Shown piece after piece: positions 16,715-39,860 of a stretch of 64,000 nt of DNA. The DNA is from an uncultured virus (IMG/VR IMGVR_UViG_3300010160_000028). Lineage: Duplodnaviria > Heunggongvirae > Uroviricota > Caudoviricetes. How positions within the stretch are numbered: the first letter of the stretch is position 1; each line of letters opens with the position of its first letter. The stretch lies in IMG/VR virus record IMGVR_UViG_3300010160_000028; one strand, 5' to 3'. The position numbers and the translations under genes were made by a program. Under the pieces are notes generated by a model. That model was not told the DNA's origin, ran no database searches, and saw only the letters and a list, made by a program, of their open reading frames with translations.

Positions 16715-16764
16715 GAATATTAGGGGTTACATAACCGCTTCGTTGCTCTATATAGAGGTTGAGA

Positions 16765-23846: not shown

Positions 23847-24515
23847 ATGGCGCGTAAGAAAGTGTCGGAACCTATGGTGGCTCCGTTGGAAGAATTTCAT
23901 TATTTTGTAACTCCCATCTATATTATTAAACAGCCACGGTTTCTTGATGTAGTTAAGACAATAGCATTGGACAGCATCAAGCAAGTTCACGGCAAAGCTA
24001 AGCCGGACAAAATACATCCTCTCCTCATGTCGGGCAATATGTTGGAAGACACTCGCATCGAGGAGTTTGCCAACTTTGTAGGCGAGACGGCGTGGAATAT
24101 CTTAGCTAGCCAAGGCTACGCTATGGAGAATTTTAGCACTGGGTTTACTGAAATGTGGTGCCAAGAGCATTATCAAACGGCATCGATGGATTACCACGCG
24201 CATGCCGGAGGTAGCTTCCTTGTTGGCTTCTATTTCCTTGACACGCCGGAAGGATGCTCACCCGCTGTCATTCACGATCCTCGTCCAGGACGCGTCATGC
24301 TCGACTTGCCGCAAATTAATCCTAGCCAAGCAACGCTTGCAAGCACGGCGATTAACTTTATTCCAGAACCGGGGATGTTGATGTTCACACCGGCATGGTT
24401 AGCGCACAGCTTCAATCGCAATACGTCGAAGGACCCGTTCCGCTTCGTTCACTTTAACCTCGCCGTGCAGCCAAAGGCACCAGTCGCGTGTCTTGCGCCT
24501 GCAGAGGTGATCTGA
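23847..24515 (+). CDS. 2OG-Fe(II) oxygenase (TIGR02466-like)
   Basis: HxH motif 'YHAH', 'GFYFL', 'DPRP' and 'PEPGMLMFTPAWLAHS....R...FN'. Confidence 0.8.
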   Translation: MARKKVSEPMVAPLEEFHYFVTPIYIIKQPRFLDVVKTIALDSIKQVHGKAKPDKIHPLLMSGNMLEDTRIEEFANFVGETAWNILASQGYAMENFSTGFTEMWCQEHYQTASMDYHAHAGGSFLVGFYFLDTPEGCSPAVIHDPRPGRVMLDLPQINPSQATLASTAINFIPEPGMLMFTPAWLAHSFNRNTSKDPFRFVHFNLAVQPKAPVACLAPAEVI

Positions 24516-24781: not shown

Positions 24782-24789
24782 TATAAATA
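24782..24789 (+). promoter_or_regulatory. T4-type late promoter TATAAATA
   Basis: Exact consensus upstream of the 24818 fibre gene; no obvious terminator before the downstream enzyme cassette. Confidence 0.75.
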
Positions 24790-24817: not shown

Positions 24818-27535
24818 ATGGCTACACCAAATAACTTTCGCGTTAAATCAGGCCTGAATGTAGGCACTACAATAGCAGGCGGTAATACAACTATTACTGG
24901 CTTTGCGAATGTCAGCACCAGCGTCAACTCAGCTTCACTCACTGTAGGTTCTAGCTTCATTGCCAACACGAGCAAAGTGGCTATCGGTACGGCAGTCGGA
25001 CTTGAAGCGAACGGTGGTATCGGTACTGCCGGTCAAGTATTACACTCAAATGGTACTTCGATATACTGGGCAGTTGATGACAATGCCGGAGGAACAGTCA
25101 CATCTGTCGCAACTGCCAACGGTCTTTCTGGTGGTCCAATTACATCAACTGGTACACTCGGTGTAACGACCGGTTCGACACTTACGGTGAATACTGCCGG
25201 CATTCATGTGAACTCAGCCTTATCAATCACATCTCTTACGTTAGCAGGTGCAGCTTCTGGTGTTACGACACTTGCTGCCGGTAATACAACAATTACAGGT
25301 TTTGCAAACGTAACAGGTAACGTACAAATAAGCGCGATCAATGCAACCTCATTTGGCGCTACGCTTACTTCAAATTCAACGACCGCTATTTTAACTCTTG
25401 GCAACTCTTCTGTTACCGCAACAATGAATAGTTCAACCTTTAGTGGCACTGCAAACAACTCTACGAATCTTGACGGGTCTTCATTAGCTACAGTACAAGG
25501 TCAAATTACTGGTAACGCTACTACTGCATATACAAACTCAGTATCCTACACTGACACAAAGATCGGTACAGCGAATACTGCGATGGTTGCAAATGCCGGT
25601 GCAGCATATACCAATGCGACTATTTTTGCTGCCAATGCTTCGAATGCAAACAATGGCACATTAGCTTTTGCTCGATTACCTTCATTGTTTGTTGGAACGA
25701 CTACGATTCAGTCAACAAGTGCTGCACAAGCCGTAACAGGTATTACGACGCTTGCCGCAGGTAACACGACGATTACTGGTGATATTACCGTTTCTGGTAA
25801 CCTTACTATCAATGGTACTACAACCAATATAAATTCTACAAATCTTGTTGTAGAAGATAAAAACATTGTGCTTGCTGACGTAACTACTCCGACCGATGTG
25901 ACTGCCGACGGTGGTGGTATTACTCTGAAAGGTGCCACCGATAAGACATTTAACTGGGTTGATGCAACTGACAGCTGGACTTCTTCTGAACATATCGATC
26001 TTGCGGCCGGTAAAGTCTATAAGATCGGTACTACTACTATTGCTAACTCTACAGCTTTAGGTACTGGAATTCTTGCATCGTCTCTTACCTCTGTAGGCAC
26101 TTTAAGTTCTCTTACGCTCGGTGGCGCAGTATCAGGCGTCACAACACTCGCTGCCGGTAATACTACTATTACTGGCTTTGCGAATGCTTCAGTTTCGGTC
26201 AACTCAGCATTGTTAACTGTGGGTACAGCCTTTGTTGCTAATACGATTGGAGCTTTTCACACTGGTACTGTTAACGCTGCATCATTTACAACCACTGGTT
26301 TAACAATTAATACTACTGCTATTGTTCCTACATCAAACTCATCAGGGCAGACATTAGGTAATACCACTTCTAGGTTTGTTTTGTCCGCCAACTCAATTGA
26401 CACAACAGGCGCAATTAACATCGCCGCCGGGCAAGTGTTAAAATTCAATAATGATGTTGGTATTTCTCGCTCGCAAGCTGCAGTATTGTCTATCGGCAAC
26501 GGAACTCAAAATGATTCTACTGGAACAATAAGTCTTACTGGTGGTTTATTTCAAGGCGCAGTCAATGCAGCTTCACATACTGTCGGTTCTAGCTTCATTG
26601 CCAACTCAACGGGCATTACATCAACTGGCTTTGCAAACGTATCGACTACATTACAAGTGGGAACGAATACAGCCACCTTTGGTACCGCTGTTTATATTAT
26701 AGCAAGTGGTAACACCGGTGTTGGTACAAGTTCTCCGGCATCACTGTTTCATGTCAAACGCGGCAGCAATGCTACCGAAAACTACCCTACTAATACTTGG
26801 GCGGCGCGCATTATCAATGCCACCGATGCCAATACTGAAAATGGCCTTGTTGTCGGCAATCGCTGGGCTGCGGTTGAGTCAACAATTTTTGAAGCCGGGT
26901 CGATTTATGGCGGAGGCTCTGCTTGGGCATCTTATTATAAAGTCACAGGCATTGGAACGCACACTTGGGGCACGGGCTCAACTGGCACTGAAGCTATGCG
27001 TATCGATACTAACGGTAACACTGGTATTGGTAACACCGCACCGGCCCATAAATTATCGATAGGTGGCACGCTCGCAGCCGGTAACACTACGATCACGGGT
27101 TTTGCTAACGTATCGACCACTTTACAAGTAGGAGGCATTTCTACTCTTGCCGCAAACTTAGTAATGGCCAACAATTTTATTACTCGCCCAGTGTTAGCAG
27201 GTTACTCTGAACACGAAGTGTCAAACACGGCAGTTACTGGTACATTTACACTAGACTTTTCGACTGCAAACTTCTTCGATCTAATACTTACTGGAAACAC
27301 GACAATCTCACCATCTGGAATTCCAGCGAATACAAGAATGGTTTCTGCTACACTTGCAGTCAAACAAGATGCGACCGGAGGAAGAACCATTACATGGCCG
27401 ACAGGTACTAAATACGCGGGTGCTGTCTCGCCTCCTGCGACAACGACTGCAAATGCTGTCGATATCTGGTCGATTATGACGTACGATGCGGGCAATACTT
27501 ACATTGTTTCATTGTCAGTAAAGAATGCGAGCTAA
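24818..27535 (+). CDS. Tail fibre protein sharing modules with the 16765 fibre
   Basis: 'NFRVKSGL' N-terminus, shared 'AAGNTTITG' units, 'GN.G.GT..P...' fibre repeats and C-terminal 'QDATGGRTITWP...KY.G...P...ANAVDI' domain. Confidence 0.8.
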   Translation: MATPNNFRVKSGLNVGTTIAGGNTTITGFANVSTSVNSASLTVGSSFIANTSKVAIGTAVGLEANGGIGTAGQVLHSNGTSIYWAVDDNAGGTVTSVATANGLSGGPITSTGTLGVTTGSTLTVNTAGIHVNSALSITSLTLAGAASGVTTLAAGNTTITGFANVTGNVQISAINATSFGATLTSNSTTAILTLGNSSVTATMNSSTFSGTANNSTNLDGSSLATVQGQITGNATTAYTNSVSYTDTKIGTANTAMVANAGAAYTNATIFAANASNANNGTLAFARLPSLFVGTTTIQSTSAAQAVTGITTLAAGNTTITGDITVSGNLTINGTTTNINSTNLVVEDKNIVLADVTTPTDVTADGGGITLKGATDKTFNWVDATDSWTSSEHIDLAAGKVYKIGTTTIANSTALGTGILASSLTSVGTLSSLTLGGAVSGVTTLAAGNTTITGFANASVSVNSALLTVGTAFVANTIGAFHTGTVNAASFTTTGLTINTTAIVPTSNSSGQTLGNTTSRFVLSANSIDTTGAINIAAGQVLKFNNDVGISRSQAAVLSIGNGTQNDSTGTISLTGGLFQGAVNAASHTVGSSFIANSTGITSTGFANVSTTLQVGTNTATFGTAVYIIASGNTGVGTSSPASLFHVKRGSNATENYPTNTWAARIINATDANTENGLVVGNRWAAVESTIFEAGSIYGGGSAWASYYKVTGIGTHTWGTGSTGTEAMRIDTNGNTGIGNTAPAHKLSIGGTLAAGNTTITGFANVSTTLQVGGISTLAANLVMANNFITRPVLAGYSEHEVSNTAVTGTFTLDFSTANFFDLILTGNTTISPSGIPANTRMVSATLAVKQDATGGRTITWPTGTKYAGAVSPPATTTANAVDIWSIMTYDAGNTYIVSLSVKNAS

Positions 27536-27538
27536 GAT

Positions 27539-28861
27539 ATGGGTATTGGTGGAGGTTCTAAATTTACACTCGAAAAAACTTGGCGCGCAAGTGGTGTCGG
27601 CACGACTACGTTTAATGCACCAGGCAATATCGCAATCCCTTACGGTAGAAATGTAATCAACGTTGCTGGTGCAGGTGGCACCGGAACAGCAGCCATTTCT
27701 GGTAACTTAAACTATAATCCACTTGTACCAGGAACATTAAACTATAATCCACTTGTTCCAGGAACATTAAACTACAATCCACTCGTTCCTGGTACTCTTA
27801 ACTATAACCCACTCGTTCCTGGTAACTTGAACTATAATCCACTTGTTCCTGGAACATTAAACTATAATCCTCTAGTTCCAGGCAATCTGAACTATAATCC
27901 GCTTGTTCCCGGAAACCTAAACTATAATCCACTTGTTCCTGGAACTGCCAACTATAATGCTGTCGTTCCGGGCACTTCTAACTATAATGCTGTCGTTCCG
28001 GGCACTTCTAACTATAATGCTGTCGTTCCAGGCAATTCTAACTTTAACCCAATTGTTCCAGGAACTGCGAGCACATATAATCCAGAGAGCGCAGGAACAG
28101 CGAGCTCATATAATGCTCCAAGCCCAGGAACAATTGCTGGATATACTCCCTATAAAGCCAAAGCGGGTACCGGAGGCAATCCGTTCTATAATGCTCCAAC
28201 TGCTGGTAATCTGAATTATAACTCTCCTTCTCCAGGTACAGTTGCAAGTTATAATTCTCCTTCAGGCGGCACATTTGCTGGTACTAATCCATCAAGTGGA
28301 GGTACATTTGCTGGTACTAATCCATCAAGTGGAGGTACATTTGCTGGTACTAATCCATCAAGCGGCGGTACTTTATCTTCATACAATGCTCCAACTGGCC
28401 AAACATCGACCGGAACATATAATGCTCCAACTGGAAAAACATCGACCGGAACATATAATGCTCCAACTGGTCAAACATCAACAGCAACATACAATGCTCC
28501 AACTGGCCAAACATCGACCGGAACATATAATGCTCCAACTGGAAAAACATCAACAGGCACTTATAATGCACCAACGGGTCAAACCTCAACAGGCACTTAT
28601 AATGCACCAACGGGTCAAACCTCGACCGGAACATATAACGCTCCGACTGGACAAACGTCGTCAACATATAATCCAAATACTCCGGCAGTTGCCGGTACCT
28701 CATCATCAGCGCTCGGCGTGACAGCTCCCGGATCGGCGACCGGAGGAACTCCAGCAACACCGGTAGGTCAAACACTTGTTAGCTATTATACATATCCAGA
28801 TAACGCAACATATCCTGTGACAGTGGCTCCTGGGGGTAATATAACTATAGTAGTATCGTAA
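27539..28861 (+). CDS. Pro/Asn/Tyr-rich repeat protein with mirrored repeat architecture (putative fibre-tip protein)
   Basis: 440 aa; (NYNPLVPG)x8, (NYNAVVPG)x3, then (GGTFAGTNPSS)x3 and (YNAPTG[QK]TS)x8. Confidence 0.8.
   Translation: MGIGGGSKFTLEKTWRASGVGTTTFNAPGNIAIPYGRNVINVAGAGGTGTAAISGNLNYNPLVPGTLNYNPLVPGTLNYNPLVPGTLNYNPLVPGNLNYNPLVPGTLNYNPLVPGNLNYNPLVPGNLNYNPLVPGTANYNAVVPGTSNYNAVVPGTSNYNAVVPGNSNFNPIVPGTASTYNPESAGTASSYNAPSPGTIAGYTPYKAKAGTGGNPFYNAPTAGNLNYNSPSPGTVASYNSPSGGTFAGTNPSSGGTFAGTNPSSGGTFAGTNPSSGGTLSSYNAPTGQTSTGTYNAPTGKTSTGTYNAPTGQTSTATYNAPTGQTSTGTYNAPTGKTSTGTYNAPTGQTSTGTYNAPTGQTSTGTYNAPTGQTSSTYNPNTPAVAGTSSSALGVTAPGSATGGTPATPVGQTLVSYYTYPDNATYPVTVAPGGNITIVVS
27701..28680 (+). repeat. 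Coding tandem repeats with 30-bp, 33-bp and 36-bp units
   Basis: Read directly; synonymous variation between units. Confidence 0.9.
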
Positions 28862-28885
28862 TTTTTATATAATGAGGAATATATA

Positions 28886-29476
28886 ATGACTTTTGACTTT
28901 CAAAAATATAATGCGCCGTTGGAGTGTTTTGCTATATGGGAAGGTGGATTTACACCTGAAGAAGTAGACAAAATCCTTTATATGGAATCTCTCCAAAACT
29001 TTGGAAAAGGTACAGTAGGATCCGAGAATGCAGTTGCTAAAAAAGAAGTCAGAGACTCTGAAATAGCATGGATTCACCCCGATCAACATTCCCATTGGTT
29101 ATTTGAACGACTTGCTGCAATCACATCAACCATAAATCATCAACAATTTATGTATGATATTAAAGGTGTTGAACTTCTTCAATACACAAAATACAATATT
29201 AACCAACACTACACTTGGCACTGGGATGTTGAGTTTGGTTGGCAAAACTTTCAGCGTAAAATCTCTGCCACGATGATGCTCTCTGATCCTGATGAGTATG
29301 AAGGTGGTGAACTCGAGGTTTGCAATAATGGCAATTTTGAAGATACTAAAGTAGTGAAACCTAAAAAAGGTGATATTGTTTTCTTTGCATCTTGGATGCC
29401 GCATCGAGTAAAACCAGTTATTTCTGGTGAAAGAAAATCATTGGTAATGTGGGTAATGGGAAAAAGGCAATCGTAA
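28886..29476 (+). CDS. 2OG-Fe(II) oxygenase, prolyl-4-hydroxylase/PKHD-like
   Basis: 'LQYTKY...HYTWHWD', 'RKIS...LSDP.EYEGGEL' and 'F.S..PHRVKPV.SGERKSLV.W'. Confidence 0.88.
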   Translation: MTFDFQKYNAPLECFAIWEGGFTPEEVDKILYMESLQNFGKGTVGSENAVAKKEVRDSEIAWIHPDQHSHWLFERLAAITSTINHQQFMYDIKGVELLQYTKYNINQHYTWHWDVEFGWQNFQRKISATMMLSDPDEYEGGELEVCNNGNFEDTKVVKPKKGDIVFFASWMPHRVKPVISGERKSLVMWVMGKRQS

Positions 29477-30192
29477 TGTTTAACTTCTTTAAAAAACCGG
29501 TGATGGAATTCTATTGCCATCCAGAACAACATGGTGTTATTCCTGAACCAAAACCGGCTGCAAAGTATATAGCAGATTGGTTTAAAAAAATTCCTGTCGA
29601 TCTTGATGAAAGAGACACGTTTGGTGCTCGATCAATGTCTGCAAAGAAATGTATGCCAATGCTAGATGCAATGACATTAGGATACGTGATTCCTTTACAA
29701 GCAGATCTACATCTCATTTCTAATCACGATCGCACTCATATTGAGGTGACAAATCCTCCTGGTACAAAGATTTGTGAGTTTCATAATATCAAGCAAGTTG
29801 GTGAAAAGACTGCGCCCGGATTTCCGGCAGCTCCAATAAAGTTCATCAACTATTGGGTGATTAAAACAAAGCCCGGTTATTCTACGATGATCATGCCATT
29901 AGTTAATAATTTTGATAATGACTTTACGTGTTTGTCAGGTCTTGTCGACACTGATAGATATCCTAAAGAAATCAATTTTCCTGCAATCTGGCACACTCCT
30001 AACTTTGATGATATTATTCCAGCAGGAACTCCACTTGTTGTAGTGTTTCCTATTAAAAGAAGCGATATTCCATCTAAACCAATCGTCAGAGAAATGACCA
30101 CTAAAGAATTTAAACACATTGATAATATCAAAAAAGCACAAGACAGTCGTCGTCATGTCTATACACAAGAATTGAGGGAACCTAGAAAATGA
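29476..30192 (+). CDS. Phage hypothetical protein (DUF6065-like), paralogue 1
   Basis: 'P.PA.K.I.DWFK', 'KKC.P.LDAMT.GY.IPL', 'GLVDTD' and 'I.AGTPLV.V.P'; TAATG coupling. Confidence 0.6.
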   Translation: MFNFFKKPVMEFYCHPEQHGVIPEPKPAAKYIADWFKKIPVDLDERDTFGARSMSAKKCMPMLDAMTLGYVIPLQADLHLISNHDRTHIEVTNPPGTKICEFHNIKQVGEKTAPGFPAAPIKFINYWVIKTKPGYSTMIMPLVNNFDNDFTCLSGLVDTDRYPKEINFPAIWHTPNFDDIIPAGTPLVVVFPIKRSDIPSKPIVREMTTKEFKHIDNIKKAQDSRRHVYTQELREPRK

Positions 30193-30908
30193 TTTTCAAT
30201 TTTCTTAAAAAGAAAAAAGATCTTGAATTTGTAGATACCAGTAGAACTGCTTATCAGACATATCCTGTTGTAAGAGCGGCTGATATCAAACCGCGCACAT
30301 TTGAATATCAAAAAAACAAATACAAAAAGCATATGTTGCCTCACTGCCCCGGTATGATTCAATATGCTGAGATGGGATATATTATTCCTGCATGGATTGA
30401 TATTCACATTAGAGCGAATAAAGCAGGTGTTGCTCACTATATTGGATCTGACGAACGCGGAACCCGCGGATATTTGCCAGGTAGAGTAATGGGTGCAGAC
30501 GTAATCGATGGGATCTTTGAACCAGAAGATGGTGTTCCGTTGACTCCTCTTAATTTTGGAGCACCTTGGGCTATTTTTGGTCGTGGTAATATTACAGCCT
30601 TGTTATTACCTGCGATTTATCATTCAGACTTCTTAGACGATTTGATGGTATTACCTGGATCTGTTGATTATGAAAAGTTTCATACTGCCAATTTTATCTG
30701 TGCTCCAAAGCGTGAGTGCGAGGTACATATCAAAGCTGGAGATCCTTTGTTGCATGTGATCCCGTTCTGGAATAAAGAATTTAATGCTGGATTTGGGCCT
30801 GGATCACAAGATCAAGTAGACAAATGGAATAATGAAATTCCCGGTGATGATAAACAATATTATCGTAGGTTTCAAATGTTAAAGAAAGTGTTTAGGTTGT
30901 CAAAATGA
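30189..30908 (+). CDS. Phage hypothetical protein (DUF6065-like), paralogue 2
   Basis: 'HCPGM......GYIIPAW', 'LPGSVD' and 'IKAGDPLLHVIPF' align with the preceding gene. Confidence 0.6.
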   Translation: MIFNFLKKKKDLEFVDTSRTAYQTYPVVRAADIKPRTFEYQKNKYKKHMLPHCPGMIQYAEMGYIIPAWIDIHIRANKAGVAHYIGSDERGTRGYLPGRVMGADVIDGIFEPEDGVPLTPLNFGAPWAIFGRGNITALLLPAIYHSDFLDDLMVLPGSVDYEKFHTANFICAPKRECEVHIKAGDPLLHVIPFWNKEFNAGFGPGSQDQVDKWNNEIPGDDKQYYRRFQMLKKVFRLSK

Positions 30909-31975
30909 AAATATTTGTATCAATCTGTTCTTATAGAGATCCACTTTTACATTATACTCTTGAGAGTTTAATTGAAAACAAATCAAATAGACACGAAGCA
31001 ACTTACTCGATCTTAGAACAGATCGTATACAAAGACTCGCTTGAGAAGTTATATCCAGAACTTGTGGCAAGACCGGATGTTGTTTATAAAAGAGTCGAAC
31101 CACAATATTCAGACGGGGTAGGTTGGGCGAGAAAGGTTAACTCACTGAATGTAAGAGATGAGGATTTCTTTTATCAAATCGACAGTCATATGGTGTTCGA
31201 TGAAAACTGGGATCGATATCTTGTAGAAGACTATAAGCGTGGTGTCAAGAAATCTGGTAGTAAGAAAGTTATTATTGACGGTGGAACTAAAACTTATACG
31301 TTAACTGAAAAGTTTGAACCGTATAAACATATAGAAGCTTACGGAATTACCACACATGCAAAATATTTTATGTGGGACAGAAATTCTATATTAGCAGTAC
31401 ATGGACATCATGTTCCTCCTACACCAGATGTGATGCCTACAGCACATCTTTTTGCCGGCAATCTTTTTACTCATGTCGAATGGCTTCAAAATGTAGGAAT
31501 CAATCATCTTTCGTTTTTTGATGCTGAAGAACAGCTTCTTACTATGACATCATTTGAAGCCGGTTACTATATGTACGCGCCGACTGAAGTTAAAGTATAT
31601 CATTTCGCCGGATCCGGAGAGTATACTACTAAACAGTGGTATAAACCTATTATTAGTATGGATAAATACTCAGAATGCGTAAAAATATCTGTTAAACAGT
31701 GGACAGATTATCTTGAATATGTTCAAGAATCCGTTCTCATAGATTACTACAAATATTCTGGCGTAGATTACATTAATCAAAAGATCGAAGATCGCGGTCG
31801 AGACTATCCTGCATTAGTCAGTAAAATGAATTATCCTTTGATACCAGGCGAAACTCACGTCGTTATTAATAAAGAAATTGAAGAAGACACTAAATCTAAT
31901 ATAATTGTTAATGAAGAAATTCAAGATGATAAAGGTGAAATAACAAATGACAGTGCCGAATCTCAAACGGAATAG
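30905..31975 (+). CDS. GT-A glycosyltransferase, Skp1-hydroxyproline GlcNAc-transferase-like (GT60/Gnt1)
   Basis: 'IFVSI.SYRDP....T', 'GVGWAR', 'E.F..QIDSHM.F...WD', 'AGNLF' and 'F..EE' are GT60 hallmark motifs. Confidence 0.8.
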   Translation: MKIFVSICSYRDPLLHYTLESLIENKSNRHEATYSILEQIVYKDSLEKLYPELVARPDVVYKRVEPQYSDGVGWARKVNSLNVRDEDFFYQIDSHMVFDENWDRYLVEDYKRGVKKSGSKKVIIDGGTKTYTLTEKFEPYKHIEAYGITTHAKYFMWDRNSILAVHGHHVPPTPDVMPTAHLFAGNLFTHVEWLQNVGINHLSFFDAEEQLLTMTSFEAGYYMYAPTEVKVYHFAGSGEYTTKQWYKPIISMDKYSECVKISVKQWTDYLEYVQESVLIDYYKYSGVDYINQKIEDRGRDYPALVSKMNYPLIPGETHVVINKEIEEDTKSNIIVNEEIQDDKGEITNDSAESQTE

Positions 31976-32408
31976 AGAATGTGGAGATTGTAAAGAATGC
32001 TGTACGGGCACTTTATATGCTGATATTTACGGAAAAATTATGGATAAGGGAAGACCGTGTCACTACTTAGGTGGAGAGGGTTGCACTATTTATGAAAAAA
32101 GGCCAGGTGTTTGTAAAGCATATGCATGTGAATGGCTAAGAGATGATTCGACACTTATTCCAGAATGGATGAGACCGGATTTATCAAAAGTTATTATTAC
32201 GCAAAAAGGCTGGGGTGATAATCTTCAACACAATTATTGGAATATCGCAGAAAGCCATCAGAAGATTGATTCTGTAATCTTAAATTGGGTCTATATGTAT
32301 ACGTCTTCTCATAATATATGTGCTAACATTGAAGTTGACGGAAGATGGTATCAAATGGGCCCTCCCGAATTTGTAGAATATATGCAGAGAAGTGTTTCGG
32401 CGACTTAA
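31947..32408 (+). CDS. YkgJ/CxxCxxCC cysteine-cluster protein
   Basis: 'CGDCKECC...PCHYL...GCTIYEKRP.VC..Y.C'. Confidence 0.8.
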   Translation: MTVPNLKRNRECGDCKECCTGTLYADIYGKIMDKGRPCHYLGGEGCTIYEKRPGVCKAYACEWLRDDSTLIPEWMRPDLSKVIITQKGWGDNLQHNYWNIAESHQKIDSVILNWVYMYTSSHNICANIEVDGRWYQMGPPEFVEYMQRSVSAT

Positions 32409-32412
32409 ATCT

Positions 32413-33006
32413 ATGTTATACGAAGAAATAAAACTTAAAAATCCTGGGGTATTAAAAACAAAACTACCTAATGATATATTCAGGCAGATAAAAGCTGATG
32501 CACTTGCAGATGCTGAAAAAAAGATCCCATATAATGAACATTTAGTAGGTCAAATTGCTGGTGAATATCAAATCAAAGTAAATCCATATTTTGAAAAAAT
32601 TATTAATAATATGTGGATTGAATATAGAGAAAGATTTGACTATCATCTTTCAAACCAATATTATATTTCTGATACAGCATGGATAAATGTCCAGAAAAAA
32701 CATGAATTCAATCCCGTGCATCATCATGAAGGTGCAGCATCTTGGGTTATATGGTTACAGATCCCGTATGATTTAGAGGAAGAATTGAACACTTTTAAAA
32801 ATGCAAAAAGTCGTGATACTTCTTTATTTTATTTTTATTATAATTCGTTTATAGGAACACAAGAAAATTCCCCGCTGTATATTGATAAACAATGGGAAGG
32901 AACTATGATTATGTTTCCGGCGATGCTGAAGCATAGCGTATATCCATTTTATACTACAGACTCTCCAAGAATTTCAATATCTGGGAACATTGAAGTCCAT
33001 GCATGA
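32413..33006 (+). CDS. 2OG-Fe(II) oxygenase
   Basis: 'WIN.QKKHEFNP.H.H', 'SWVIWL.IP' and 'EG.M.MFPA.L.HSVYPF....RISISGN'. Confidence 0.82.
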   Translation: MLYEEIKLKNPGVLKTKLPNDIFRQIKADALADAEKKIPYNEHLVGQIAGEYQIKVNPYFEKIINNMWIEYRERFDYHLSNQYYISDTAWINVQKKHEFNPVHHHEGAASWVIWLQIPYDLEEELNTFKNAKSRDTSLFYFYYNSFIGTQENSPLYIDKQWEGTMIMFPAMLKHSVYPFYTTDSPRISISGNIEVHA

Positions 33007-33829
33007 TATTCAATTTTGGAAAGAATTATGTCCAAATCTTACGATTGCAGAAATAGATCGTTGGGCAACACCGTCAGAAATTGCTATAGAAGATGTCAAA
33101 GATAAAATAGTTAACGACGGATATTTCCATATACCATTTGACTCATGGAATCTGCCTTTCGATGAAATGACTCGATGCATTGAAAAGTTAAAAGATCTTG
33201 ATATGCAACCAGTATGGTGTTTTATATACGACGAGTTTTGGTTATTGACGGTCAAGATCGATGCACACATCAAATCTATTCTTGGTGAAAATTATTATCG
33301 GCTTCCTGAAGTGTGGGCATGGCATATCGATCCATCGAAAGAAGAAAGAGGCTGGAAGATACATCGAGAAGGCGGATATTATAGTACATTTGATGACGGT
33401 CTTCCAAAAACTTTAACTATCTGGATTCCTTTAACAGATGCAACTTCAGAGAATGGTTGCATGTGTGTCGTGCCAATAGCAAACGATCCTAACTTTTATA
33501 ATACAGACGAATCGTATTATGCAAATTGGCAAGAAGATTTTTATGATAATAGTAAAAAAATACTTGAAGCCAAATCAGGAGATGTGCTTGGATGGCATCC
33601 GCAGATATTACATTGGGGGAAAAAATCTACTAATAAAAATGCAAATCCGCGAATATCAATATCCATGGAGTTTGTTTCGAATCGTATATTAGAACTAAAT
33701 GATACTGCGTGTTTTTATGACAAAGAAGAACATCCATGGTTAGATCCATTTTATATTCCAGATCTGACTAAAAAGACAGAACTCATAAATAAGCTAGTAT
33801 CACGATATCAACATATGTGGGAAAAGTAA
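32999..33829 (+). CDS. Phytanoyl-CoA dioxygenase (PhyH)-like 2OG-Fe(II) oxygenase
   Basis: 'W.IHRE', 'TIWIPLTDAT.ENGCM.VVP' and 'GDVL.W...ILHWG.....RISIS'. Confidence 0.8.
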   Translation: MHDIQFWKELCPNLTIAEIDRWATPSEIAIEDVKDKIVNDGYFHIPFDSWNLPFDEMTRCIEKLKDLDMQPVWCFIYDEFWLLTVKIDAHIKSILGENYYRLPEVWAWHIDPSKEERGWKIHREGGYYSTFDDGLPKTLTIWIPLTDATSENGCMCVVPIANDPNFYNTDESYYANWQEDFYDNSKKILEAKSGDVLGWHPQILHWGKKSTNKNANPRISISMEFVSNRILELNDTACFYDKEEHPWLDPFYIPDLTKKTELINKLVSRYQHMWEK

Positions 33830-34438
33830 ATGCCTGAACTAACCAAATACGAAAAATTAGTAAGACTTCAGCCGGTCGATTTTGTGCCTGAGATACAATT
33901 GTATCTATGTGATACAGCACATCACATCGTATATCCCGATAGATATCCTTGTTGGGCATACGCATGGGTAGGCGGAAAGGCACTTGCCAGATATATTCTT
34001 GATAATCCGCAATTAGTTCAAGGCAAAACAATCATTGACATGGCAGCTGGATCTGGAATTGCAGCCATCGCAGCTAAAATGGCTGGCGCTGCAAGAGTAA
34101 TAGCAGTCGATGACTATACACCGAGTATAGAAATCATGCAACTCAATGCTGAAGCGAATGGCGTTGAAATAGAATTGGTTCAACAAAGCGTTTTTGACTA
34201 TCAACCAAGCCACGCCTATGACTTATTCATAATGGGCGATCCATTCTATAACGATGATCTCTTCTCGTATGTTGAAAATAATTTCAAACCAGTACTTGTC
34301 GGATGCCCGGTAAGATCTCATACTTTGTATTATAATTTTTATGTAAAAAATCCAATACACACATATACTATTGAATCACCTCCAGGCTACGACGACTATC
34401 TCGAATTTGACACACACATTTGGTGGTTAAGTGCCTAA
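33830..34438 (+). CDS. SAM-dependent methyltransferase, family 16 (ETFbeta-KMT/METTL20/Nnt1-like)
   Basis: 'P.WAYAW.GG.ALARYILDNP..V.GK..ID..AGSGI.AIAA..AGA..V.A.D' and 'GDPFY'. Confidence 0.85.
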   Translation: MPELTKYEKLVRLQPVDFVPEIQLYLCDTAHHIVYPDRYPCWAYAWVGGKALARYILDNPQLVQGKTIIDMAAGSGIAAIAAKMAGAARVIAVDDYTPSIEIMQLNAEANGVEIELVQQSVFDYQPSHAYDLFIMGDPFYNDDLFSYVENNFKPVLVGCPVRSHTLYYNFYVKNPIHTYTIESPPGYDDYLEFDTHIWWLSA

Positions 34439-35189
34439 ATTTACGTGTTTATTAACACCAGGAAGATCGGGCTCTACGTTTTTATACACTGCATTTAATC
34501 AAATTCCAAATACTATTGCACATGAATCATACTATGTGTGTACTGATAATATCGAGCAGTGTTTTTCTTCTATTTACGGAAAATCGTTGGCAGAAAAAAA
34601 CAGATTCATAAAGTCTAAGATCGAATATATCGAAAACTTAGACTGTGAATACTATGTTGATACTGTATCTCTTATATGCCAAGATAATAACTTAGAGTTG
34701 TTTATCGATAACGGTTATAAACCAAATGTCATTACGCTTCGCCGTGATCCAAGAGATGTTGCCTTAAGCTGGTATAGTTTTGGTTGGGATCCGACTAAGT
34801 CGCCTTTAACATCTGTCAATCCAAATGACAAAGATGCCATCAAAATCACATTACAGGATCCACATGATTATCAATATTGTTTATGGTATTGCTTTGAGAT
34901 TGAAAGACTGTGTAGACAATATAAAACAAAACTTGAATCTTGGGGCGTCAAACATTATGAAACATCCTTGTCTCATATAATAGACAAAGACAAGTTTAAT
35001 TTGATGTTAGATTTTTTTGAAATGCCTAACATATCAGAGATATGTCAAGGTAAAATAAATGAACTGAATGAATTTAAGGTCAGATCATTAGAAAATCATC
35101 TAATTCCTGAGTTGCAACAGCAGTTTCTAGAAAACATTAGAGACAATAATGACATAGAGTTTTTTGATATGGATCAGTGGAACTATTAG
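34431..35189 (+). CDS. Sulfotransferase-like (P-loop) protein
   Basis: 5'-PSB-like 'TPGRSGSTFL' followed by 'HE'; 3'-PB-like 'LRRDPRDVALSW'. Confidence 0.65.
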   Translation: MPKFTCLLTPGRSGSTFLYTAFNQIPNTIAHESYYVCTDNIEQCFSSIYGKSLAEKNRFIKSKIEYIENLDCEYYVDTVSLICQDNNLELFIDNGYKPNVITLRRDPRDVALSWYSFGWDPTKSPLTSVNPNDKDAIKITLQDPHDYQYCLWYCFEIERLCRQYKTKLESWGVKHYETSLSHIIDKDKFNLMLDFFEMPNISEICQGKINELNEFKVRSLENHLIPELQQQFLENIRDNNDIEFFDMDQWNY

Positions 35190-35770
35190 TCTCTATAAAC
35201 AGGAAGTGGAAAACCATATTGTGCTACATTTCCTGGTGAAACATAATGTAAAAAGGCTTGTGTGATAGATTTTTGTTCTACCTTTGGTCGATAATGCCAT
35301 CTTCCGTCAAATTCGGTTGTGCCATAAAACATAATAGCATCTCCTTCTTCCATAAAGACTTCTACAGGATTTGATCCGTGTTCGTCATCACAGAAACATA
35401 AAGACGTTGGCTGATCGCCGTCTTTGTCAATTAGTATAGTAGCTGAGAATTCACAGACAGAACGATCTCGATGGATCTTGAGTTCAGAATCGGTATAATA
35501 TTGCCTAAAAAATACATAAGAAGGAATCAATTCAGTATTAAAGATGTCTTGCACTTTATTCTTATATGCGAGCAGCATACTATCAGCAAAGATAGTAGGT
35601 TGATAGTGATCGACATTGCCAATGAGATAAGGATTTGCTTCTACAGTCTTAATATTCGAAGCCTGTGAAACATCCATAAAAGACTTACAAATCTGAATTA
35701 CTTCTGCAGATAAAAAGTTCTTGATGAGAACATATCCATGTTTTTTAAGATGTTTTCTAGCGTTTTTCAT
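35186..35770 (-). CDS. 2OG-Fe(II) oxygenase
   Basis: 'L.PSY.F.R.Y...SEL..HRDR..CEFSAT' and 'GDA..F.G....HYR'; coupled (TAATG) to the upstream minus-strand gene. Confidence 0.78.
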   Translation of the reverse strand: MKNARKHLKKHGYVLIKNFLSAEVIQICKSFMDVSQASNIKTVEANPYLIGNVDHYQPTIFADSMLLAYKNKVQDIFNTELIPSYVFFRQYYTDSELKIHRDRSVCEFSATILIDKDGDQPTSLCFCDDEHGSNPVEVFMEEGDAIMFYGTTEFDGRWHYRPKVEQKSITQAFLHYVSPGNVAQYGFPLPVYRD

Positions 35771-36531
35771 TATATGCCTTTCATCCACTTTGTTCCATGC
35801 TTCGAGCTGTACTTTGTTTCAGGATCGTATGCTGCAAAATCTTCGTAGCGAGGATCTCCTGGCTCAGCTCGCTTGCCGATGCTATACTCGCCGATATGAT
35901 TGACGATGTTATTTCCTTCTTCGGTCTTGAGCTTACATGTTTGCATGCCAAGTTGTTGCAACGATTTCGCGACGACATACTCACTTAAGTTCTTCTCGCC
36001 TACTGATTCGGTATGAGGAAGATCTACTATGGCACGCGGAAAAACACTTGCCAAACTCCAAAAATATGCTTCAGAAAGTTCTCCTCGATATTTTCCGAGT
36101 GTAATGTCTGTTTCATAAGCCTGAGTTTCCTCTTCAAAATCATACCATTTTTGTCTTGTCAAACATACTTGAGAAACGTTACGATAATCATGTAAGATCT
36201 GAGTCATGTCGAGCATTCGAATCGGACAGTTGAACGTCACATCATCTTCTGATAGATACACGTAGTCATAATCTCGTTCTCTCAGCAGTTCGAAGGTTCG
36301 ATTCCATACGTATGGCAAACCCATATTCTGTTGATGTAAGAAGATCTCGGTAAAACCAAAACTTTTGGCTAACTCGAACATCGTACCATCGTGGCGACCT
36401 TTTGGCATATCATCGATAAAGATGCCTTCGACTTCACAACCTTCAAAGTCTAACATATCACGCTGAGATTTGAGTGTAGGAATTAAATACTCGAGTCGAT
36501 TCGTCGACCATATTACTTTACAAACTTTCAT
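35770..36531 (-). CDS. GT2-like (GT-A) glycosyltransferase
   Basis: 'R.EYL..TL.S', 'IDD', 'N.G', 'DYDYVYLSEDD' (DxD-like) and 'HIG'. Confidence 0.72.
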   Translation of the reverse strand: MKVCKVIWSTNRLEYLIPTLKSQRDMLDFEGCEVEGIFIDDMPKGRHDGTMFELAKSFGFTEIFLHQQNMGLPYVWNRTFELLRERDYDYVYLSEDDVTFNCPIRMLDMTQILHDYRNVSQVCLTRQKWYDFEEETQAYETDITLGKYRGELSEAYFWSLASVFPRAIVDLPHTESVGEKNLSEYVVAKSLQQLGMQTCKLKTEEGNNIVNHIGEYSIGKRAEPGDPRYEDFAAYDPETKYSSKHGTKWMKGI

Positions 36532-37079
36532 CTCACTTGCTCCGTGTCAAAAAAGAATGTCTGAAAAAGACGTCCATCATATAAATCTTTCCCAAAGTAA
36601 TCTAAGCTAGCATGGAAAAGGTCACCGCTATAAAGAATCAATCGATTGTATTTGTTGCCTACAACATCGATTCGATCCCACTTGGTATAGTCATATGCTT
36701 CGTGCTCGTTTGTTGGAGCCCGATATTCGCCTGTTTCTTTGTGCCGATACATGGCAGTGCCAGCGGTATATGGAGCATCTGGTGACAAGTAGCATACACC
36801 AGCCCACATGCTTGTATGATCGCAATGAATCCACGTTCGATCTAAAGCGGTAGCGTATTGAAAGGCACCAGTATAACCGGAATCTTCGTGCCAATTGGAA
36901 ATCTTTCCGACTGGATTCATCCAATGCTGAATGCAATCTTTGACATCTTGTGTCAAGAATGAAGGTGTTCGTTTTCCTGGATAGTTACCTATGACGCCAA
37001 AGTCTTGAGTTAAAGCAAAGGCTCTGACCGCGTCTGGATTGATATAGAAGTTATCAATAATCATCAAGTCTAAATTCAT
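36528..37079 (-). CDS. 2OG-Fe(II) oxygenase-like protein (DUF6445-like)
   Basis: 'IIDNFY.NPD.VR..AL', 'YPG.R', 'WIH.D', 'AGV.YL.P', 'NRL.LY....FH' and 'RL.Q.FF'. Confidence 0.72.
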   Translation of the reverse strand: MNLDLMIIDNFYINPDAVRAFALTQDFGVIGNYPGKRTPSFLTQDVKDCIQHWMNPVGKISNWHEDSGYTGAFQYATALDRTWIHCDHTSMWAGVCYLSPDAPYTAGTAMYRHKETGEYRAPTNEHEAYDYTKWDRIDVVGNKYNRLILYSGDLFHASLDYFGKDLYDGRLFQTFFFDTEQVR

Positions 37080-37110
37080 AATATTTCAAGTCCTCATGCT
37101 ATACTAGTTG

Positions 37111-37118
37111 TATTTATA
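37111..37118 (-). promoter_or_regulatory. T4-type late promoter (minus strand) for the 3-gene reverse operon
   Basis: TATTTATA on the + strand reads TATAAATA on the minus strand, about 30 nt upstream of the 37079 start. Confidence 0.72.
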
Positions 37119-37123
37119 CGTCT

Positions 37124-37131
37124 TATAAATA
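37124..37131 (+). promoter_or_regulatory. T4-type late promoter for the neck/terminase genes
   Basis: Exact TATAAATA upstream of gp13. Confidence 0.75.
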
Positions 37132-37164
37132 GCTAGACACATAAATATAATAAAGAGGTATTCG

Positions 37165-37908
37165 ATGGCAACTCCTACTACAAAAGCGACATTTAAAGAG
37201 TATTGCCTTCGGAAGCTCGGCAAACCAGTCATTGAGATTAACGTCGACGATGATCAGGTAGATGATCGCATCGATGAAGCAATTCGTTACTGGTATGACT
37301 ATCACTTCGATGGTTCAGAGAGAATATACTATAAGCATGCTATCACGTCAACTGACGTAACAAACAAGTATATCACTCTTCCAGAGAATATCATTGGTGC
37401 TGTCAGCATCTTCTCGATGGGTGATCCTTCGATTCGCTCTGACGACCTCTTTAATATTCGCTATCAGATCGCACTGAATGATATTTATACTTTGACAAAC
37501 GTATCTCTTGTTCCATACTACATGGTCATGGAACATCTTGCACTCATGACTGAGCTTCTTGTTGGTAAACAACCTATTCGTTATTCTCGTCACAAAGATC
37601 GTCTTTATGTTGATATGGATTGGAATACAGTTGCTGTCGGTGAATTCTTACTCGTCGAAGCTTACGAAGTTGTAGATCCAGAAACATGGACAGATGCTTA
37701 TAACGATCGTTGGCTTCAAAACTATGCTACGACTTTGATTAAAGAACAATGGGGTTCGAATCTTACAAAGTTTACTGGAATGTCCTTACCGGGTGGAGTA
37801 CAGTTTAACGGAGAGAAAATCTACAATGACGCGGTCGACGCAAGAACTAAGATGGAACAAGAAATGATTTCATCTTATTCCCTTCCGGTTCTCGATATGA
37901 TAGGTTAA
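37165..37908 (+). CDS. gp13: Neck protein
   Basis: 'YCLRKLGKPVIEINVDDDQV.DRIDEA' and 'QWG.NL.KF.G..LPGGV..NG'. Confidence 0.93.
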   Translation: MATPTTKATFKEYCLRKLGKPVIEINVDDDQVDDRIDEAIRYWYDYHFDGSERIYYKHAITSTDVTNKYITLPENIIGAVSIFSMGDPSIRSDDLFNIRYQIALNDIYTLTNVSLVPYYMVMEHLALMTELLVGKQPIRYSRHKDRLYVDMDWNTVAVGEFLLVEAYEVVDPETWTDAYNDRWLQNYATTLIKEQWGSNLTKFTGMSLPGGVQFNGEKIYNDAVDARTKMEQEMISSYSLPVLDMIG

Positions 37909-37912
37909 CCCT

Positions 37913-38641
37913 ATGACAACCAATTTCTATTTTAACAACTTTACAAATAGTCAAGAGCAGATCTTAATCGAGGATCTGGTTCTTGAGTCTATTCAAATAT
38001 ATGGTCATGATGTATTCTATTGTCCTCGTACACTCGTAGCCAAAGATGAAATCTACGAAGAAGATGCAGTATCAGAATACAACAGTAATTACTTAATTGA
38101 CATGTATATTCGTAGCTATGAAAGTTACGAAGGCGACGGGCAATTCTTGTCGAAGTTTGGTCTTGAAATCAGAGATCAAGTCACATTTACTGTCTCTGTT
38201 CGTAACTTTATGAATGAGATCGGAAACGTTGAGATGATCGATCGTCCTCAAGAAGGCGATCTGATTTATCTTGCAATGGCAGATCGTTTAATGTATGTGA
38301 AGTATGTGAACAAAACTCCTGTCTTTTATCAGATGGGCGCTATCCAGATGTATGATCTTGTTTGTGAGATGTTCGAGTATGGTAGCGAGAAGTTGAATAC
38401 AGGTATTACAGCTATCGATAGCATTGAGAAAAACTCCAGTCTAAGTCTCGATGCCTTTGGAATCTTGACGAATGACAATTTACTTCTGATTACTCAAGAA
38501 GGAAATCCAATCATACAAGGTAGCTATGATTTTGGCACACAAGCCGGAGATGCATTCGAAGATAATATCGAGTTTGAAACAGACGGGGACACTATCCTTG
38601 ACTGGACGCAGATAGATCCGTTTAGTGAAGGACAAGTATAA
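37913..38641 (+). CDS. gp14: Neck/head-closure protein
   Basis: 'EQ.LIEDLV.ESI..YG.DV.Y.PR', 'SKFGLEIRD' and 'RP.EGDLIY'. Confidence 0.93.
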   Translation: MTTNFYFNNFTNSQEQILIEDLVLESIQIYGHDVFYCPRTLVAKDEIYEEDAVSEYNSNYLIDMYIRSYESYEGDGQFLSKFGLEIRDQVTFTVSVRNFMNEIGNVEMIDRPQEGDLIYLAMADRLMYVKYVNKTPVFYQMGAIQMYDLVCEMFEYGSEKLNTGITAIDSIEKNSSLSLDAFGILTNDNLLLITQEGNPIIQGSYDFGTQAGDAFEDNIEFETDGDTILDWTQIDPFSEGQV

Positions 38642-39471
38642 TGTTTGGAAGAACATGGAATCATGACAGTTTAAGAAAATACATCATTGTATTTGGTACT
38701 GTCTTCAACGATATCTATATCAATCGACTTAGCTCGACTGGAGAAGTACTTCAGACTCTGAAAGTCCCTTTAACGTACGGTCCAAAAGACAAAATACTTT
38801 CGAGACTCGAACAAAGCCCGAGACTCGATAATCAAGTTGGTATTATTCTTCCTCGTATTTCTTTTGAAATGACGACTTTAGAATATGATCCTACTCGTAA
38901 GTTAAACACTCTGAATAAGCTGACGAAGCAATCTGCAACCGCGGGCACTGATGACGAAGTCAAGTATCAGTATCAACCTGTTCCATATGATATGCAGTTC
39001 GAAATGAACATCTTAGTGAAGAATGCCGAAGATGGCACGCGTATCGTAGAGCAGATCGTACCTTACTTTACACCAGCTTTTACCGTAAGCGTGAATGTTG
39101 TACCAGAAGTCGATAGCGCGCGAGATATTCCTATTGTTCTAAATAGTATCTCTTCTCAAGATCAATATGAAGGCAACTTCGAACAAAGAAGAGCTTTAAT
39201 ATGGACACTTAGCTTTACATTGAAAGGTTGGTTGTACGGACCATCGAAGAAATCAAAACTAATTAAACACGCTGAAACTGTATTTAGATTTCCAGAAGAT
39301 GTCGCGACCGGAAATACTAATAGCACAGCGAATACGATAGTAGTGACTTCACGTCCTGGACTCACCGCGAACGGAGAACCTACTACCAACACTGCTTTAA
39401 GTATTTCGTATGAAGATATTATAAGTACAGATGACTATGCCATTATTAATACAATTACTGAGAATATCTAA
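38641..39471 (+). CDS. gp15: Tail terminator/sheath stabiliser
   Basis: 'RKYI..FGT.FNDI', 'VPL.YGPK.K', 'LPRISFEM' and 'EQI.PYF.P'. Confidence 0.93.
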   Translation: MFGRTWNHDSLRKYIIVFGTVFNDIYINRLSSTGEVLQTLKVPLTYGPKDKILSRLEQSPRLDNQVGIILPRISFEMTTLEYDPTRKLNTLNKLTKQSATAGTDDEVKYQYQPVPYDMQFEMNILVKNAEDGTRIVEQIVPYFTPAFTVSVNVVPEVDSARDIPIVLNSISSQDQYEGNFEQRRALIWTLSFTLKGWLYGPSKKSKLIKHAETVFRFPEDVATGNTNSTANTIVVTSRPGLTANGEPTTNTALSISYEDIISTDDYAIINTITENI

Positions 39472-39860
39472 TGAGCAATGAACTTGATAAATTTTTAAAC
39501 ATCGCCGCCGGCGATAACTTACCAGCTGTGATCGAAAAAAAGATGAGTACTCAAGTCTCGGCTGACTTTGAATTTGCTCGCGAGAATATGATGGAAGTCA
39601 TTAATAAAGGGCAAGAAGCTCTCTTCGATCTAATGGATGTGGCAAAACAAAGTCAACATCCAAGAGCATATGAAGTACTTGCTGGAATGATGAACACTAT
39701 GGTCGGAGCGAGTAAAGATCTTTTGGATTTACAAGTCAAAAAGAAAAAATTGATGGAAGATGATCCTTCTGCTTCTCCACAACAAGTCACAAACAATCTT
39801 TTTGTTGGTTCGACTGCAGAGTTACAAAAATATCTAAAGCAGCATAAAGATGGCGAGTGA
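39471..39860 (+). CDS. gp16: Terminase small subunit
   Basis: 'DF..AREN', 'HPRAYEV' and 'NNLFVGSTAELQK'. Confidence 0.92.
   Translation: MSNELDKFLNIAAGDNLPAVIEKKMSTQVSADFEFARENMMEVINKGQEALFDLMDVAKQSQHPRAYEVLAGMMNTMVGASKDLLDLQVKKKKLMEDDPSASPQQVTNNLFVGSTAELQKYLKQHKDGE

Follow-up and report, generated by a model that had tools for sequence, protein, structure and literature searches.

A gene block behind a tail-fibre gene of an uncultured T4-like phage as a candidate tailoring cassette for an adjacent repeat protein

Gene content of the string between the fibre genes and gp13

In a 64,000-nucleotide (nt) stretch of DNA from an uncultured virus (IMG/VR IMGVR_UViG_3300010160_000028), hereafter the window, we analysed a string of genes at 27539-37131 that encodes a repeat protein and a set of oxygenase, DUF6065, glycosyltransferase and other enzyme-like proteins. 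PHROG and Pfam scans showed the 64-kb window to be a structural module of an uncultured T4-like myovirus, with genes for baseplate, fibres, gp13, gp14, gp15, both terminase subunits, sheath, tube and portal, as well as prohead protease, scaffold, major head protein, UvsY, a helicase and gp46/47-like nuclease subunits. The string comprises 13 open reading frames (ORFs), one for the repeat protein and 12 enzyme-like, ten on the plus strand and three on the minus strand, and its junctions span a 29-nt overlap to a 24-nt gap. This bore out an earlier note on this DNA, which had described twelve tightly coupled non-structural genes between the fibre genes and gp13. The fibre gene ahead of the string and the 13 ORFs are listed below, with lengths in amino acids (aa); 2OG stands for 2-oxoglutarate, P4H for prolyl 4-hydroxylase, HexNAc for N-acetylhexosamine and SAM for S-adenosylmethionine.

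24818..27535, plus strand: tail-fibre protein, 905 aa; phrog_9017 and phrog_7760 ('tail fiber protein'), phrog_6002
27539..28861, plus strand: repeat protein, 440 aa; no Pfam or PHROG family
28886..29476, plus strand: P4H/PKHD-type 2OG-Fe(II) oxygenase, 196 aa; PF13640, 71.7 bits (cut-off 27), 1e-19
29476..30192, plus strand: DUF6065 paralog a; PF19541, 32.7 bits (cut-off 26.6); the ORF runs from GTG 29449, and homologues begin at ATG 29476
30189..30908, plus strand: DUF6065 paralog b; phrog_7084, 7.7e-16; no Pfam match; about 21% identity to paralog a
30905..31975, plus strand: GT60-family polypeptide HexNAc-transferase-like protein, 356 aa; PF11397, 81.3 bits (cut-off 21), 1.2e-22
31947..32408, plus strand: Cys-rich protein; PF03692 (CxxCxxCC) 19.1 bits, under the cut-off of 23; phrog_9155, 2.4e-37
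32392..33006, plus strand: 2OG-Fe(II) oxygenase of Oxy_5/TIGR02466 type; PF13759, 5.7e-13; phrog_81, 1.1e-28
32990..33829, plus strand: PhyH-type 2OG-Fe(II) oxygenase; PF05721, 2.8e-13
33830..34438, plus strand: class-I SAM methyltransferase of protein N-methyltransferase type; PrmA 39.2 bits (7.6e-10), MTS 36.4 (5.3e-9), Methyltransf_16 31.6 (1.7e-7)
34431..35189, plus strand: sulfotransferase-like protein; PF00685 (Sulfotransfer_1), 26.8 bits (cut-off 22), 4.1e-6, residues 7-129 only
35186..35788, minus strand: probable 2OG oxygenase; phrog_2954 (5.2e-31, mislabelled 'ferrochelatase'); HxD...H in sequence
35770..36531, minus strand: possible GT-A glycosyltransferase; phrog_2456, 1.7e-5 over 38 residues; E-D-D motif
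36528..37079, minus strand: DUF6445 protein, probable 2OG oxygenase by motif; PF20043, 1.5e-14; HxD...H in sequence

As shown in the list, the GT60-like gene that the earlier note expected to match PF11397 did so far above the cut-off, and the sulfotransferase-like gene was supported by PF00685. The two genes it had called paralogous unknowns (29449-30192 and 30189-30908) both matched phrog_7084, so their paralogy is real. Five 2OG oxygenases had been counted; three of them were recovered by Pfam (PF13640, PF13759 and PhyH), whereas the 35186-35788(-) and DUF6445 proteins were assigned only by an HxD...H read in the sequence, and hhalign against the P4H profile was not significant for 35186-35788(-) (E 0.13) or for the DUF6445 protein at 36528-37079(-) (E 0.23). 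The gene previously named GT2-like kept its short phrog_2456 match and its E-D-D motif, but Pfam, NCBIfam and PDB gave no match to 35770-36531(-). PDB sequence searches with the GT60, GT-A-like, sulfotransferase, DUF6445 and 35186(-) proteins returned no credible match. A family-16 assignment of the methyltransferase was correct in so far as Methyltransf_16 (PF10294) beat its cut-off of 21, but PrmA and then MTS scored higher; the HemK/PrmC/PrmA models matched it, its PDB matches were 3bzb, cypemycin N-methyltransferase and protein arginine methyltransferases, and it also matched a PHROG named DNA methyltransferase (1.6e-6). The CxxCxxCC identity, with a PF03692 score under the cut-off, was not supported.

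Conservation of the block across viral loci

A search with the GT60 protein as query gave 13 viral loci (individual loci are numbered with L below). The close ones retained the whole cassette beside gp13. In the distant ones (about 50% identity), all that was left was the repeat protein, the oxygenase, the DUF6065 gene pair and GT60, flanked by a fibre gene on one side and a 2470-aa fibre on the other. In the synteny test, the DUF6065 alignment was the sole query, so that retrieval was unbiased by the repeat protein or the oxygenase, and the best 80 loci of 270 viral stretches, with 42 distinct variants of DUF6065 a, were compared. The results showed a P4H-type oxygenase gene at most 2 ORFs upstream in 40 of the 42 variants, the misses being an ORF-picking artefact and a truncated contig, and the second DUF6065 paralog came next in all 42. 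The repeat protein was found at most 3 ORFs upstream of the oxygenase in 36/38 variants and immediately next to it in 33; of the remaining two, L081 on inspection by hand contained a 5'-truncated repeat protein, which is a 37th case. These loci were fetched via DUF6065 alone, and the result supported a genetic tie between the repeat protein and the hydroxylase. GT60 was directly downstream in 32 of 41 variants, anywhere in the locus in 35 and absent from 6.

Fibre genes were part of the same arrangement. A C-terminal fibre domain of about 120 residues was conserved upstream of the repeat protein in all 13 aligned loci, and A227, G228, P232, P233, T236, D242, W244 and L259 were invariant in this alignment (A6). 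The fibre gene with this domain, the repeat protein, the oxygenase and the two DUF6065 genes thus form a five-gene block that stays together across many uncultured phages. Its conserved core consists of the repeat protein, the hydroxylase and the DUF6065 pair; GT60, the sulfo- and methyltransferases and any further oxygenases are additions that differ from lineage to lineage. The earlier suggestion that the repeat protein directly upstream of the P4H-like gene is the most obvious substrate agreed with this linkage. The invariant enzymes, however, were the hydroxylase and the DUF6065 pair and not P4H plus GT60, since GT60 was present in only 35/41 variants.

The block was observed beside gp13, inside the fibre cluster before the 2470-aa fibre, and inverted relative to gp13, always by fibre genes, and it was also present in a viral record of 63.9 kb with a completeness rating of 100%; it moves as a unit between genome contexts. 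Two loci (L092 and L103) carried two modules each, one of repeat protein, oxygenase and GT60, the other of repeat protein, oxygenase, DUF6065 a and DUF6065 b. In the GT60-module oxygenases of L092 (2109-2684) and L103 (2322-2897), the distal iron-binding His was replaced by Ser or Ala. Five other loci had sulfotransferase matches within the block (Sulfotransfer_1/3 in L037 and L075; Sulfotransfer_2 in L029, L050 and L099), three loci had extra PF13640 oxygenases, and in one 523-aa protein (L076:8429-10000) a GT60 was fused to a class-I methyltransferase. With regard to the methylated or sulfated decoration that the earlier note had proposed, such enzymes thus recur in relatives via non-orthologous genes, which supports the proposal as a trait of the family, whatever the target of either enzyme may be. 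In an 863-kb contig of Undibacterium sp. (L109, 2691-6442), the oxygenase and both DUF6065 genes were grouped with a fibre-like gene and the gene for a 210-aa repeat protein, and GT60 was absent; this block probably lies in a prophage of a cultured Undibacterium strain.

In loci L036-L054, the minus-strand GT-A-like/DUF6445 pair and gp13 were 94-98% identical to the window (35770-37908), whereas the core block was 46-67% identical; this contrast indicated that the window cassette is mosaic and that a recombination joint must lie inside it. The GC content of the accessory enzyme genes (30001-36000) was 0.35-0.36, versus 0.45-0.52 for the fibre genes immediately before them and 0.39-0.47 elsewhere, which fits a segment acquired separately or exchanged fast. 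Such mosaicism and low GC would also agree with another reading, in which the enzymes act on host envelope polysaccharide, lipopolysaccharide (LPS) or metabolites, including the published idea of 2OG drawdown by cyanophage 2OG oxygenases, and the position beside the fibres marks a recombination hot spot. Along the same line, Sullivan et al. 2010 propose roles in 2OG/N-stress and DNA repair for cyanophage 2OG oxygenases (PMC3037559), and cyanophage glycosyltransferases are read as host-surface modifiers in a 2025 paper (PMC12801897). However, a host target leaves both the pairing of repeat protein and hydroxylase (36/38) and their joint duplication unexplained. PF11397 is a polypeptide glycosyltransferase family, and in Pfam and NCBIfam none of the 12 proteins matched a family that belongs to polysaccharide or LPS pathways. 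We consider action on the host improbable.

The repeat protein and the core enzymes

The repeat protein is composed of 12% Pro, 15% Gly, 16% Thr and 13% Asn, and its units are NLNYNPLVPG (12 copies), TFAGTNPSSGG (3 copies) and TYNAPTGQTSTG (8 copies), the last making its second half Thr/Ser-rich. At the DNA level, these correspond to tandem arrays of 12 x 30-nt, 3.1 x 33-nt and 7.8 x 36-nt units. Contigs of 4 metagenome DNA runs covered the enzymes at at least 90% identity, and their joints in the repeat gene (27709-28092) skipped 90, 150 and 63 nt; these skips may be repeat-number variants or assembly collapse. Among the homologues, the N- and C-terminal segments were common to all, and the repeat unit and its number varied. 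In the structure model of the 276-aa homologue L029:4930-5760, both termini formed one beta-sandwich with a predicted local distance difference test (pLDDT) score of 83-96, and the repeats scored about 40, below 50; this beta-sandwich had no significant structural match. We read this model as a domain for docking into which a long flexible tract is inserted, and gene order alone would place the docking site on the fibre. A tblastn search with the repeat protein gave 4 records with 26% identity over 29% of the query, which were rejected as low-complexity noise.

The earlier note had suggested that Pro or other residues are hydroxylated in the phage's own fibres. Collagen-like G-X-Y runs were present in two window fibres, 11263-12966 (162 residues) and 16759-22494 (210 residues), which are rich in Gln, Ala and Thr and carry Pro in the X position only. 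Pro-Gly occurred 0 times in these 372 residues versus 17 times in the repeat protein. As the collagen-like fibres are without X-Pro-Gly, the claim on fibres narrows to the repeat protein, and were the oxygenase a P4H of collagen type, this protein would be the only good substrate in view. Even there, the 17 Pro-Gly pairs have to be set against the [Y/F]-N that is the invariant feature of the repeats.

The catalytic residues of the core oxygenase were strongly conserved. H112, D114 and R183 were invariant in 24/24 sequences and H173 was present in 22/24; together they make up the HxD...H triad and the 2OG-binding Arg; the second-module paralogs of L092 and L103 were the ones with Ser or Ala at H173. 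In the GT60 proteins, D93-S94-H95, H166, H181, E208, E209 and H233 were invariant in 19/19, where D-x-H/D-x-D is presumably the metal site of GT-A polypeptide transferases, and relatives reached 96.6 bits to PF11397. These results bear on the reading that the hydroxylase and the DUF6065 pair, in the way of fibre chaperones, help to assemble or fold the fibre and the repeat protein, the mature protein being undecorated and the other enzymes passengers of a hypervariable region. Dedicated chaperone genes commonly lie behind phage fibre genes, and a phrog_1084/phrog_3304 'fibre assembly' gene was found downstream of the block in many loci. DUF6065, moreover, has no detectable sequence kinship to active dUTPases, and its homologues in HF1 and Syn9 lie near Gly-rich proteins of the fibre region. 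A structural role alone, however, would not need HxD...H...R kept in 22/24 oxygenases or the GT60 metal site kept in 19/19, nor does it sit well with sulfotransferases and a methyltransferase inserted or fused in separate lineages. An assembly role was accordingly judged unlikely.

The DUF6065 family is large, with 3430 cluster representatives at E<=0.001 in a profile search, and a protein atlas listed it as unnamed viral clusters only, with no structure. A fold search gave a dUTPase-like fold. The dUTPase Pfam model PF00692 did not match DUF6065 even at E<=10, the only match being PF19541, in 19/23 members; hhalign with the HF1 ORF that matches PF00692 gave a probability of 0.2%, and PDB profile searches with DUF6065 alignments A1 and A4 yielded one chance match (E 0.41) and none, respectively. 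A cupin oxygenase was also tried and rejected, as hhalign against the P4H profile was not significant (E 0.51). In paralog a, V157 and D158 were invariant and D160 was kept in at least 90% of sequences, within an invariant G-x-V-D-x-D stretch that we take to sit at dUTPase motif 3; paralog b retained D158 only. Among the best 150 family representatives, 13 were proteins of 451-536 aa with two DUF6065 stretches, and Pfam found tandem DUF6065 only, with no foreign domain, in 21 long DUF6065 proteins. Such tandem a-b fusions argue that DUF6065 a and b act together. Trimeric dUTPases have a Gly-rich C-terminal arm. Unlike dUTPases and dCTP deaminases, DUF6065 proteins lack a sequence match to them, end in a helical C-terminus (209-233 in paralog a), occur as a diverged a/b pair or tandem fusion and are fibre-linked.

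The dUTPase-like fold supports a reading in which the cassette hypermodifies phage DNA or nucleotides, with proteins of dUTPase/dCTP-deaminase fold followed by oxygenase, glycosyltransferase and methyltransferase, by analogy with hydroxylate-then-glycosylate base modification. The DUF6065 homologue of cyanophage S-CREM1 is annotated 'triphosphate nucleotidohydrolase', and the PHROG match of the methyltransferase to a DNA methyltransferase points the same way, but its best matches were protein methyltransferases. The genes lie in the late structural module, inside fibre clusters and away from replication and nucleotide genes, and the block is tied to the repeat protein. The oxygenase is of P4H/PKHD type with no match to a TET/JBP or AlkB family in Pfam, and the failure of the dUTPase model to match DUF6065 also counts against this reading. 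Modification of DNA or nucleotides therefore seems very unlikely.

The octamer TATAAATA, a T4-type late-promoter-like motif, occurred 9 times in the window versus 3.79 expected, a number reached by 2 of 100 shuffles, and 7 of the 9 sites lay at most 60 nt upstream of a gene start on the same strand. Both late promoters named in the earlier note were TATAAATA sites, and the window also encodes a late sigma factor.

24782..24789, plus strand: TATAAATA motif, 36 nt ahead of the start of the fibre gene that heads the plus-strand string
37111..37118, minus strand: TATAAATA motif, 32 nt ahead of the start at 37079; it heads the three minus-strand genes and is back to back with the gp13 motif at 37124(+)
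54536-55099: gp55-like late sigma factor; phrog_234, 4.6e-61

The oxygenase and the plus-strand genes downstream had no TATAAATA of their own and form a tight string behind the motif of the fibre gene, which fits late expression of the predicted enzymes together with the fibre. Of 24 representative loci with sufficient DNA upstream, 8 had an exact TATAAATA ahead of the fibre gene heading the string. A sigma-70 promoter scan (58 versus 42.6 +/- 7.3) and a terminator scan (10 versus 11.4) were uninformative.

All these results suggested that the string is a phage-encoded tailoring cassette for the adjacent fibre-associated repeat protein, which on comparative genomics we regard as the best explanation and as moderately probable. 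Under this tailoring reading, the string would be transcribed late from the TATAAATA promoter of the fibre gene, and the repeat protein would dock on the fibre via its beta-sandwich with the long flexible repeat tract exposed. The oxygenase would hydroxylate residues of the tract, with Pro of the x-Pro-Gly units in the window protein as the most likely target, and GT60 would attach HexNAc either to the hydroxyl so formed or directly to Thr/Ser in the Thr-rich units. A DUF6065 a/b heteromer would bind a nucleotide or nucleotide-linked donor. The sulfotransferase, the methyltransferase and the four further oxygenases of the window would provide lineage-specific decoration, and the outcome would be variable surface chemistry on a host-recognition part. 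The specific chemistry would be hydroxyproline, then N-acetylglucosamine (GlcNAc), then sulfate or methyl. It is also conceivable, and in our view rather unlikely, that DUF6065 a/b is a new protein-modifying enzyme of dUTPase fold that does not activate water but moves a nucleotide or nucleotide-activated group onto the hydroxyl made by the oxygenase on the repeat protein.

Several points weigh against the tailoring reading. What stays invariant in the repeats is [Y/F]-N and not Pro, as in NYNPLVPG, GPQNFNAP, SYNTVPG and ASYNAQNV; Pro content ranges from 4% to 19% across the homologues, and in one homologue whose oxygenase is intact, Pro makes up 4% and Pro-Gly occurs once. In the PDB, the oxygenase is closest to the PKHD-type PiuC/Sbal_3634 (8.5e-9 to 2.5e-8), whose substrate is unknown, and the match to 5c5t, which we take to be the PBCV-1 prolyl 4-hydroxylase, is weaker (5.5e-5). 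It is position alone that suggests a place for the repeat protein in the virion, and this protein has no relative among cultured phages and no family (0) in PHROGs. The loci compared are related phages, and their synteny partly reflects shared descent. In 16 of the 24 loci examined for it, no exact TATAAATA stands before the string, and none of the 24 runs listed for the stretch is an RNA run. Finally, the dUTPase fold in the core points to nucleotides, and a nucleic-acid target is also compatible with it.

Relation to known systems and meaning of the block

In the Skp1 pathway of Dictyostelium and Toxoplasma, the prolyl 4-hydroxylase PhyA acts first, followed by Gnt1 of GT60 on the hydroxyproline. 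The window similarly pairs a P4H-type oxygenase with a PF11397/GT60 protein, both with conserved catalytic residues, and hydroxylation followed by HexNAc addition would be the simplest way to read this pair. It differs in that the candidate substrate is a long repeat protein, viral and fibre-linked, and in that a dUTPase-fold pair is linked to the oxygenase more tightly than GT60 is; no Skp1 family or further glycosyltransferase family was found by Pfam among the 19 proteins scanned at 24818-41523. The mucin-type polypeptide alpha-GlcNAc transferases of Trypanosoma cruzi and Dictyostelium also belong to GT60 and are eukaryotic Golgi membrane proteins. As in that case, the Thr/Ser-rich TYNAPTGQTSTG units could take sugar directly, without hydroxylation; unlike those enzymes, the window GT60 is phage-encoded and near a hydroxylase.

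Among viruses, the giant viruses offer the closest parallel in composition: chlorovirus PBCV-1 has a prolyl 4-hydroxylase together with Pro-rich repeats of its own, and mimivirus hydroxylates and glycosylates collagen. The likeness lies in a virus-encoded hydroxylase, repeat proteins and glycosyltransferases. Giant viruses, however, have eukaryotic hosts and show no gene-by-gene synteny, DUF6065 or sulfotransferases, whereas the window combines the enzymes and the candidate substrate in one operon-like block. For mycobacteriophages, work by Freeman et al. in 2023 is said to have found that phage glycosyltransferases decorate the phages' own virion proteins, at the C-termini of capsid and tail-tube proteins. 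This resembles the window in a phage-encoded glycosyltransferase whose proposed target is an own virion protein, but other glycosyltransferase families are involved there, and hydroxylase, sulfotransferase and repeat-protein substrate are lacking.

Distant DUF6065 homologues were also detected in haloarchaeal tailed viruses and in cultured cyanomyoviruses. In Syn9 (L106, gp39-gp50), S-RIM44 (L023) and S-CREM1 (L105), the homologue comes after genes for fibre, fibre-assembly or collagen-like proteins. These regions (in Syn9, gp41-gp50) resemble the window in their position behind the fibre, with a distant DUF6065 (22-25% identity) ahead of several 2OG oxygenases and a DUF6445-like gene; unlike the window, they have two FAD halogenase-like genes and no GT60. 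BLAST found no repeat-protein relative among the Syn9 proteins compared. In halovirus HF1 (L022, 6905-9736), a DUF6065 homologue with 33-37% identity is located at the edge of the tail module. Gly-rich proteins (23-25% Gly) are encoded near these homologues, in HF1 about 0.9 kb off (345 aa, 25% Gly) and in Syn9 about 3.7 kb off. Enzyme cassettes behind fibre genes thus look like a general trait, and nothing in the cultured-phage collection corresponds to the variant that includes a repeat protein and GT60.

As for the phage itself, no close cultured phage was found: the nearest blastn match among cultured phages had 66% identity over 34% of the gp13-gp17 stretch, and neither the cassette (megablast) nor GT60 (tblastn) had a match among 50,697 phage records. 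The same DNA was present at 100% identity in a 29,970-base viral record, and freshwater metagenome runs contain the window stretch. The psbA gene (PF00124) was not found in 5 related viral records, 48-100% complete, and the window phage is not called a cyanophage. Outside the string, three further genes were located between fibre genes.

23847..24515, plus strand: a further (sixth) 2OG oxygenase, of Oxy_5 type, between two fibre genes; phrog_81 1.5e-18, PF13759 2.2e-10
Within 22464-23837, before this extra oxygenase: unassigned 287-aa gene, phrog_4474; full-length alignment to Gly_rich_2, insignificant (E 3.6)
Within 22464-23837, before this extra oxygenase: unassigned 169-aa gene

A relation between the repeat protein and the 287-aa phrog_4474 protein was considered and dismissed, as the two are not similar (E 12).

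In the literature, nothing was found on DUF6065 or on a phage cassette of hydroxylase, GT60 and sulfotransferase. Enav et al. 2018 describe a non-virion 2OG gene that was mutated during host adaptation of cyanophage S-TIM4 (PMC6224464), and in the 2025 paper a prolyl-dihydroxylase-like protein co-purified with S-SCSM2R virions (PMC12801897). Ever since the many '2OG-Fe(II) oxygenase' genes of T4-like phages from aquatic habitats were first catalogued, they have lacked a tested function; the roles proposed were 2OG drawdown or DNA repair (PMC3037559). The block described here presents a concrete and directly testable pairing of substrate and enzyme, and experiments could start from the probable Undibacterium prophage, whose host strain is cultured. 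If the tailoring reading is true, virus-encoded hydroxylation, glycosylation and sulfation of virion proteins would extend from giant viruses to the host-recognition organelles of bacteriophages, DUF6065 would gain its first functional context, and host range and receptor recognition would hinge on chemistry that is invisible in the fibre sequence. If DUF6065 itself modifies protein, the trio of repeat protein, hydroxylase and DUF6065 pair would be a previously unknown pathway for host-recognition fibres, with GT60 and the sulfo- and methyltransferases as optional extensions.

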